From Octopus vulgaris (taxonomy: Eukaryota), in NCBI GenBank assembly GCA_951406725.2, contig OX597824.1:65286001-65350000 (forward strand): DNA of 64,000 bases. Direction: 5' to 3'. The position numbers were made by a program, and so were the translations under genes. Positions 56,826 through 60,020 of the stretch are shown here, piece after piece. Each line of letters begins with the position of its first letter. Position 1 is the stretch's first letter. The notes under the pieces were generated by a model. That model saw nothing but the letters and a program-made list of their open reading frames with translations, did not search any database and was not told the origin of the DNA.

Positions 56826-57292
56826 CACAAATACACACCACATGCTGAAATTCATGCATGTAAATTTATGTATATTTATGTAAATTTTTTTGATGTAAGT
56901 TTTCATGTGCACACTTATGTAATTCTTTTCATGTATGGATTTGTGTATGTGTGAGTACAACCAGATGCCCTTACTGCTGCAAGCACACATCTGTTTTCAA
57001 TCAAAATATTATTTCCCCATGGGTAGAAATTTTTTTTTTCACAGAAGACTGTAAATGAAGGACATCACTTGCATGATGGTGACACTTGAGTACAAATAAT
57101 GCACAATGTCAAGACAAGGAGATCCTTCCACACACACACAGCGAGCTTCTTTCAGTGTCCATCTACTTGATTCACTCACAAATCTTTAATTGGTCTGCAG
57201 CTATAGTAGAAGACACTTGCCCAAGCTGCCATGCAGTGAGACTGGTTCAAAAACTACATAGCTGGCTGGGTAGCAAACTCCTTAAACATACA

Positions 57293-58174: not shown

Positions 58175-58987
58175 ATAAATATATATCTGGTATATACGGG
58201 TATAAACTGGTGTATAAATATATATAACTGGTATATACTGGTTATATATAACTGGTGTGTGTGTATAAATATATATAACTGGTATAGCCAATTCATACAT
58301 TGTCTGATCAGCATTCTAATATATGTGTTTGCCCCCCCTCTCTCTCTCATACATGTATGTGTGTGTGTATATATCTATCTGTCTATCTGTGTACATGTCA
58401 TCATCATTGTTGTTGTTGTTTTAACATTTACATTTCCCAGCTTGCATAGGTCAGGCATACAGCAGTGAGGCAGATTTTCTGTGGCCGGATGCCCTTCCTG
58501 TCTCTAACCCTTACCTGTTTCCAAGTTAAGTAATATTTTCTCATGGCCAGACATGTTTCGATGGAAGATAGGAAATGAATGACACAGCTTGTATGATGCT
58601 GACACTCATTTGCAACTATTGTGCAATGTCATGACAAGGGTACAGAAACACTCATGCATTCATGTGTGCACACACATGCATACACATACGCACAAAACTG
58701 CACATAAACACATATATGCTATGGGATTTTTCAGTTTCCATCTACTAAATCCACTCACAAGGTTTTGGTTGGCCTGAGGCTGTAGTAGTAGACACTTACT
58801 CAAAGAGCCATGCAATAGGACTAAACCCCAAACCACATGGTTATGAAGCAAACGTCTTAACCACACAGTTATACCTGTGCCTATATATCCATATTCTGGT
58901 TGAACTAGTACTTTCATGCATTAAACGTTGCAATCTTCAGGTTCATGTAGTAGTGGTGACAGTTATGTTTTACAGTTTACAACTGTA

Positions 58988-59028
<41 letters not shown>

Positions 59029-59081
59029 TTGTGTATGTATGTATGTATGTATGTATATATATGTATATATATATATGTATG

Positions 59082-59128
<47 letters not shown>

Positions 59129-59277
59129 ATATTAATTAGAGACAAAACCACTATTATGCAAATCAAACAAAGAAAGACTTAATCCAATACATAAAAAATT
59201 TTCGGTGCCCCAGCATGGCCACAGCTCATGAGCTGAAACTAGAAAATCAAAAAAAAAAAATCAAAAAATTAAGATAT

Positions 59278-59323
59278 CCACTACAATCGTTTCTTGTCAC
59301 TTCTATTGACATTCATCAGGTGG
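59278..59323 (-). ncRNA. Type I hammerhead motif (left arm)
   Basis: Reverse complement: CCAC CTGATGA ATGTCA ATAGAAG TGACAA GAAAC GATT GTA GTGG. Confidence 0.7.
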
Positions 59324-59362
59324 TTTCAAGACCTTCTTTGCAATGCAAAGAAGGTCTTGAAA

Positions 59363-59408
59363 CCACCTGATGAATGTCAATAGAAGTGACAAGAAACGAT
59401 CGTAGTGG
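59363..59408 (+). ncRNA. Type I hammerhead motif (right arm)
   Basis: CCAC CTGATGA A TGTCA ATAGAAG TGACA A GAAAC GATC GTA GTGG: stem I CCAC/GTGG, stem II TGTCA/TGACA (A.A at the core-proximal pair), palindromic stem III ACGATCGT, GUA site. Confidence 0.75.
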
Positions 59409-59591
59409 ATATCTTAATTATATTTAATTTATATAAAATTTTTTATGTATTGGATTAAGTCTTTCTTTGTTTGATTTGCATAATAGTGGTTTTGTCTCTA
59501 ATTAATATTATTTTATATTTTACTATAAAATTGGATTCAATCCTAAATCTGATTTTTCCCTGTAAATTTGGATTAATTCCCTAATATTTAT

Positions 59592-59594
<3 letters not shown>

Positions 59595-59629
<35 letters not shown>

Positions 59630-59751
59630 TTATATATGTATGTATTTATATATGTATGTATATATATATATGTGTATGTATATATATATATGTACATATA
59701 TATATGTATATATATATATATATGTATGTATATATATGTACTATATATATA

Positions 59752-59791
<40 letters not shown>

Positions 59792-59889
59792 TGTAATATA
59801 TATATATATATATATACAATATATATATATGTATATATATATATGTACATATATATATGTATATATATATATATATGTATGTATATATA

Positions 59890-59934
<45 letters not shown>

Positions 59935-60020
59935 GTACATATATATATATATAATACACATATATATATATACATACATATATGTGTGTGTATAAACACA
60001 CACACATACACACACATATA
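59595..60020. repeat. Compound (TA)n microsatellite with an internal duplicated block
   Basis: TA tract with repeated tgtacatatatatatgtat units. Confidence 0.97.

Follow-up and report, generated by a model that had tools for sequence, protein, structure and literature searches.

A 64,000-nt stretch of the Octopus vulgaris genome (contig OX597824.1; hereafter the window) carries two hammerhead ribozyme motifs placed back to back at the centre of a palindrome, which raises the question of whether the pair is a conformational switch that evolved at this locus or the product of an insertion. The plus-strand copy is a type I motif (59363–59408) with a 4-bp stem I (CCAC at 59363–66 with GTGG at 59405–08), an intact core (CTGATGA at 59367–73; GAAAC at 59393–97, followed by GATC and by GTA at 59402–04), a 5-bp stem II (59375–79 with 59387–91) that begins beyond A59374 facing A59392, and a palindromic stem III segment, ACGATCGT (59396–59403). 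Cleavage of the plus strand is predicted from the motif to fall after 59404. The initial annotation of this DNA had reported the same string of elements (CCAC-CTGATGA-stem II-GAAAC-GATC-GTA-GTGG) and the same predicted cut, and the string is present in the sequence. Its mirror copy with a single C>T change was likewise found on the minus strand (59278–59323). The change lies at a CpG site, 59285, and creates a G.U pair in stem III; because of it, the perfect palindrome claimed for stem III holds for the plus-strand copy only. Both cores are intact, and the type I core (CUGANGA / GAAA / NUH) is accompanied by stems I and II; in place of the Watson-Crick G-C pair at 10.1–11.1 the locus has A.A.

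Identification of the hammerheads rests on the core motif, on comparison across the family and on the literature. Searches against Rfam returned no hammerhead match at the gathering score in the whole 64-kb window and no hammerhead model at E≤10 in the interval 59100–59600. The sub-threshold matches obtained (RUF6-5, mir-305, mir-181 and snoRNAs) are hairpin look-alikes and were rejected as artefacts of the palindrome. The antisense arm (59305–59326, plus strand) resembles the mir-305 family consensus at 37.9 bits against a gathering score of 66, a resemblance that is likely due to chance. Hairpins of this sort could, even so, be taken for miRNAs in annotation or enter small-RNA and A-to-I pathways.

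The two hammerheads are separated by a 39-nt spacer (59324–59362) centred at 59343. The perfect 39-nt hairpin described earlier was right in size and centre and too modest in extent: the perfect symmetry extends 57 bp to either side of 59343 (59286–59400), not 19. The palindrome, given previously as 390 bp, measures ∼385 bp (59127 to ∼59510) and is interrupted by an insert in the left arm, with a further, unmatched tail on the right arm. The left arm (59127–59343, minus strand) is an inverted, 5′-truncated, tail-less pLTR copy in which the end of a foreign repeat and an A-run (∼59203–59264, the right boundary being approximate) replace a short AT stretch; part of this insert matches 10 other fetched loci, and it is likely a later SINE-like insertion. 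The arms meet head to head at 59343/59344, both stopping inside exon 1 of the element. On the plus strand the right arm comprises the last 10 nt of exon 1 (59344–59353), a splice junction at 59353|59354, the hammerhead, a pLTR 3′ segment common to both arms that ends at the first inferred reverse transcriptase (RT) start site (59409–59510), and a tail of ∼80 nt found on this arm only, ending at the second inferred start site (59511–59592). Of the element, the window holds pLTR ends only. (TA)n microsatellites flank the insertion on the left (58986–59125) and on the right (59584–59983, overlapping the AT-rich end of the tail), and sister copies likewise end in (TA)n. Since both flanks are TA runs, neither an empty site nor a target-site duplication can be defined. 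A near-perfect symmetry of 57 bp between microsatellites is also what an assembly or library fold-back artefact might leave; however, the arms differ by one substitution, one insert and one tail, and comparable head-to-head joints with other junctions occur in contigs of four public runs, so that we regard the chance of an artefact as negligible.

Copy numbers were obtained by exact-match searches of the 2.8-Gb genome, with reversed sequences as controls. Since a 26-mer has 170 exact copies and its reversed control has none, the palindrome motif is not a chance occurrence; the hammerhead 3′ half matched 1051 times and the 3′ 25-mer 1658 times, again with 0 matches for each reversed control. 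Comparison of the right arm with the genome gave 1406 first-look candidates, and in the 40 of these that were scored, identity reached 98–100% for the highest-ranking full-length matches. Within the first 100 of the 1051 hammerhead 3′-half matches there were 15 adjacent pairs less than 1.5 kb apart, and all 15 were back to back at spacings of 65–1183 nt; back-to-back hammerheads are thus routine in this family and their junction is not fixed. Many inverted partners in the family lack a ribozyme altogether. The tail was sampled from the first 100 of the 1658 3′ 25-mer matches, which gave 99 distinct contexts; these come from 71 loci on a single chromosome, and some are segmental duplicates. Each of the 28 inverted pairings in this sample, drawn from 27 loci with one entering twice, joined a tailed arm to an arm lacking the tail (p=7e-9 if either outcome had a chance of 0.5, as in a coin toss), as is the case for the pair at the window locus; this is the published signature of two RT start sites. 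At L174, L181, L184 and L232, sister subfamilies combine a much longer stem II region (up to ∼39 nt) with an unchanged stem I, core and stem III.

These counts bear on whether the palindrome moves as a whole, as a non-autonomous and self-contained foldback element of the MITE or retrozyme type. Short length, high copy number, terminal inverted symmetry and a type I hammerhead would all suit such an element. Against it, junctions and arm lengths differ from locus to locus, and in the 11 pairs whose length allowed a comparison, the two arms are closer to each other (97% alike) than to the arms of other pairs (75%). Retrozymes, moreover, are defined as tandem units (10.64898/2026.07.22.740005, in the part available), and the head-to-tail hammerhead array of a non-LTR retrozyme is absent from the window locus. 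Given also the coding parent described below, the foldback reading is already largely refuted, and we consider it very improbable.

The parent, L091, was found from the spacing of exact hammerhead matches, two on the same strand 2979 bp apart and a third inverted. It is laid out as an inverted truncated copy, a pLTR, an ORF and a second pLTR; its identity to the right arm of the window is 97–98%. Judged by motifs and homologues, the direct pLTRs enclose a single ORF encoding RT together with a GIY-YIG endonuclease (EN) at its C terminus. The 695-aa open frame contains YRDD, CTCRDKSKC (CxCx5C), YIG, CYLC (CxxC) and CRH (CxH), and a frameshift near the ORF start separates it from an N-terminal frame holding RIKWK. 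The DKT motif is present in another copy, L092. Nine full-length relatives of the parent ORF were found (429–836 aa, 33–46% identity, E≤2e-54; PF26215 in six of the nine), together with an O. bimaculoides gene model that is 73% identical over 12% of the ORF. Searches with the parent ORF gave no RT or GIY-YIG match in Pfam and no relevant match in the PDB, and a Pfam GIY-YIG search of the genome missed the parent, touching pLTR pieces at 2 of 30 loci and a hammerhead core at 0 of 30. An Asn-rich stretch lies between RT and EN in L091 (1433–3517, minus strand) and in the homologue P0001; N-rich ORF inserts are also described in Adineta vaga Penelopes (PMC3846280).

The Hydra clade of EN+ Penelope-like elements (PLEs) was defined by Craig et al. 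(2021; PMC8557442, in the sections available) and includes Hydra-1_Obim and Penelope-13_HM. The family shares with these elements a length below 3 kb, the single RT and C-terminal GIY-YIG ORF, DKT, CxCx5C, CxxC and CxH motifs (the latter two around E/N), (TA)n targets and a hammerhead in the pLTR; as judged by inspection of its Cys and His positions, the EN domain lacks a CCHH motif. Placement of the parent in this clade fits its motifs, length and TA target, as read from sequence. Penelope-13_HM includes a 5′-truncated inverted copy with a hammerhead on both strands, like the window. The family nonetheless differs from the published members in several respects: RWK there is KWK (within RIKWK) in L091, with RWK or RWR in most homologues; the core-proximal pair is U.U or G-C there and A.A, A.C, A-U or A.G here; and the tail is 30–40 nt there and ∼80 nt here. 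The hammerhead of Hydra-1_Obim is unlike that of the window family, to which it does not belong, and four diagnostic motifs of our family had 0 matches in the available portion of the PMC8557442 supplement. PLEs have been reported in O. vulgaris, with no mention of ribozymes in the available text (PMC13282606). The layout of the insertion is already known, since hammerheads in the pLTR, pairs on opposite strands, copies that are inverted and truncated, a tail on one side, (TA)n targets and two start sites for RT have been described in PMC4209133, PMC8557442, PMC3846280 and PMC11167929, the inverted truncated copy with a one-sided tail specifically in PMC8557442 and PMC3846280; in a title-level search of the open literature, no description of this Hydra-clade family or of truncations at its cut site was found.

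The centre of the palindrome is explained by splicing. Family copies fall into three upstream classes, namely an intron end (TATTTTAG), the ORF 3′ UTR and a leader of ∼28 nt, and all three are accounted for by the structure of L092, in which the ORF and 3′ UTR are followed by donor 1, then by an internal exon with donor 2 at its end, and then by a single acceptor 9 nt before stem I. Two GT donors thus share one AG acceptor, giving introns of 2875 and 1116 nt. L092 (4023–6897) is an intron-retaining copy whose ∼2.9-kb intron contains exon 1 of the element and microsatellite-rich sequence. A GT donor follows exon 1 in L092, L110/L232 and L233, the acceptor AG directly precedes GTCTTG, and the exon-1 variant that matches the window stands unspliced in L110/L232. 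A trans-spliced origin of the leader was dropped once the leader had been found in cis before a GT donor. The 1116-nt skip was also seen in contigs of two public runs, which may be RNA or DNA. In the window, exon 1 is fused to the acceptor in both arms (at 59353|59354 on the right) and both arms cross the cut site, so the template of each was a spliced RNA left uncut by the ribozyme; the region upstream in exon 1 and the intron are gone, and 10–11 nt of exon 1 are left. Among the 99 sampled copies, 53 cross the cut site, 25 have a spliced leader and 9 an unspliced acceptor.

A 5′-UTR intron ending beside the hammerhead, with intron-retaining copies alongside, is a PLE trait found here. In the Drosophila virilis Penelope the intron ends at helix I (PMC4209133, in part), and the D. 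virilis pLTR and A. vaga Pen2a resemble our family in having an intron that ends just 5′ of helix I, spliced copies next to intron-retaining ones, an inverted pLTR and a tail on one side (PMC4209133, PMC3846280 and PMC8557442, in the parts available). The Penelope intron is 75 bp, whereas those of the window family are ∼2.9 and ∼1.1 kb and use two donors (in the ORF 3′ UTR and in the promoter exon) with one acceptor. At L233 (G000:C1:8393500-8400500) two inverted, intron-retaining copies of a sister subfamily have an intron of 1316 nt, and a similar pair lies ∼373 kb away.

We are highly confident that the locus consists of head-to-head, 5′-truncated, hammerhead-bearing pLTR copies of a Hydra-clade Penelope-like retrotransposon inserted in a TA microsatellite. 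This reading draws on the pLTR match to an RT/GIY-YIG parent, the spliced centre, the single tail and the read-through of the cut site. A single event, driven by the endonuclease and reverse transcriptase of the element itself, likely produced both arms. The enzyme would nick both strands of the TA run, and cDNA synthesis would start at two internal sites ∼80 nt apart on the 5′ part of a spliced, uncleaved element RNA; both cDNAs would run towards the RNA 5′ end, stop in exon 1 and become joined head to head, with the CpG change and the foreign insert in the left arm presumably following afterwards. We infer the same two-start joining for the inverted pairs of the family. Such paired cDNAs resemble L1 twin priming. 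A published alternative, favoured in PMC3846280 (in the part available), is self-priming on an antisense template.

The initial annotation had proposed instead a built-in conformational switch, in which a read-through transcript sequesters the ribozyme in double-stranded RNA and a transcript started near the centre cleaves. Both cores are intact, and computed folding agrees with the sequestration: the probability of stem I is 0.000 in read-through RNA and 0.435 in the arm alone (RNA from 59344). For the centre-started transcript, however, the claim survives at 59344 and fails 14 nt to the left of centre, since RNA from 59330 again gives 0.000, so that a switch would need transcription to begin almost exactly at the junction, a few bases away at most; the locus has no promoter-bearing part of the element that could provide such a start. 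The same layout recurs at many loci with unrelated junctions and often with ribozyme-less partners, the left arm has already been disrupted by its insert, and the window copy, being 98–100% identical to dispersed sisters, is young. Contigs of public runs guessed to be RNA contained pieces of the family, the 1116-nt skip and fold-back joints of other kinds; none of them spans the window junction, a result with no bearing on whether the locus is expressed. Burial of the ribozyme in read-through RNA is a by-product of any such insertion. A switch evolved at this locus is accordingly a most unlikely reading, and as a routine insertion product the hammerhead here is most likely a passenger. The locus is in that sense ordinary transposon debris, and shows how PLE insertions can mimic designed ribozyme switches.

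The hammerhead would belong to the RNA cycle of the element, in which its palindromic stem III would let it work as a dimer, and it would probably be slow or protein-aided. Variation was followed across 139 fetched contexts; these are not a random sample, since the window subfamily weighs heavily among them and the regular expression that collected them required the core. Stem I was CCAC/GTGG in 125 of these, and stem III was ACGATCGT in 114, ACAATTGT in 12, ACGATTGT in 8 and other sequences in 5, while stem II loops varied widely and stems and core persisted. ACAATTGT differs by a CpG-type transition and preserves the palindrome. The core-proximal pair was AA in 75 contexts, AC in 46, AT in 11, AG in 4, TA in 2 and TT in 1; the A.A pair that had been flagged at the locus as a caveat is present, and is no damage particular to this copy, being the commonest state in this sample of the family. 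Of 25 published Hydra-clade hammerheads, 15 are mismatched at 10.1–11.1 (U.U or U.C, counted by eye), A.A not being among them in the available part of File S2 (PMC8557442). Formal covariation across nine representatives did not exceed that of shuffles (163/500).

In computed folds, the 12-nt stem III segment forms a self-duplex at −12.0 kcal/mol, and the forced monomer fold reaches −4.0 kcal/mol against an MFE of −7.3 kcal/mol. A weak monomer next to a stable self-duplex fits dimer action, and the palindromic stem III, proposed earlier as the hallmark of dimer hammerheads, points to that mode for the predicted ribozyme, the duplex energy and the palindrome-preserving variant both lending support. 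Each strand of the locus holds a single sense hammerhead, so a dimer partner must come in trans. Published PLE hammerheads similarly combine an intact core, a short stem I and a palindromic helix III, occur in opposite-strand pairs ∼100–700 bp apart and are expected to have low monomer activity; they differ in their conserved G10.1-C11.1 pair.

Whether the ribozyme folds or cuts in the living animal was approached through the ends of truncated copies. Among 62 copies truncated short of the acceptor, 24 end 50–64 nt upstream of the anchor (the cut being at 60), where simulations of measurement bias expect 18–23% (p from 1e-4 to 4e-3, for a bin chosen after seeing the data and arms that are not independent). 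Genome-wide, the first base of the copy is that of GTGG in 3 cases and that of TA-GTGG in 4; two upstream control positions gave 0 and 0 truncations (one hit there being a point change) and a downstream control gave 1, and the comparison of exact-GTGG starts with controls (3 against 0, 1 that is a point change and 1) is too small to decide. A pattern for ends lying 0–4 nt upstream of the cut retrieved 17 copies genome-wide, with the downstream sequence of the window subfamily in 11 of them. Fifteen of the 17 fall within 0–2 nt, sharing 0 nt (4 copies), 1 nt (6) or 2 nt (5) with the uncut sequence; of the remaining two, one has 4 nt in common and the other carries an internal deletion. The distribution departs from uniform at p=0.012. 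The overlaps of 0–2 nt are often explained by the partner arm or by a TA run.

The pile-up favours RT run-off from a cleaved end, as a hint that falls short of proof; a similar picture would arise if RT stalled where stem III or I is folded, or if ends were joined at AT microhomologies. Copies that stop at the predicted cut hint that the ribozyme likely folds or cuts in the living animal. A broader reading takes the thousand or so stumps as a fossil record of the element's RNA, in which every inverted insertion joins cDNAs from both RT starts, 5′ ends mark either the spliced exon-1 start or the exact cut, the A.A hammerhead cleaves in vivo as a dimer, and both cleaved and uncleaved RNAs are retrotransposed; we judge this reading evenly balanced between right and wrong. 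The Anolis Poseidon element PAc offers an in vitro parallel (Frangieh et al. 2024, PMC11167929), since two internal RT start sites define its tail, both strands are cut and extended, and unprocessed RNA is the main template. No RNA-seq reads ending at the cut were found in that system, whereas genomic copies pile up at the cut here, and its ORF starts in stem II, whereas the long ORF of our family begins 288 nt after the hammerhead start. The family is a Hydra-clade PLE that is young and high in copy number, and because its spliced, intron-retaining and full-length copies coexist, it allows DNA-only tests of how PLE inverted repeats form and of whether PLE hammerheads cut in vivo.

Two further repeats were noted. 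A second, unrelated PLE family (L096:2245-4587 and L097:2164-4506, plus strand) has an upstream ORF and an intact 781-aa RT and GIY-YIG frame, found in 16 of 148 rows of the GIY-YIG genome search, which suggests recent activity; a pattern search of the fetched stretches L096 and L097 yielded no hammerhead core. Finally, the window contains two copies of a 110-nt dispersed repeat (57150–57259 and 58729–58838), which are 74% identical and probably SINE-like.
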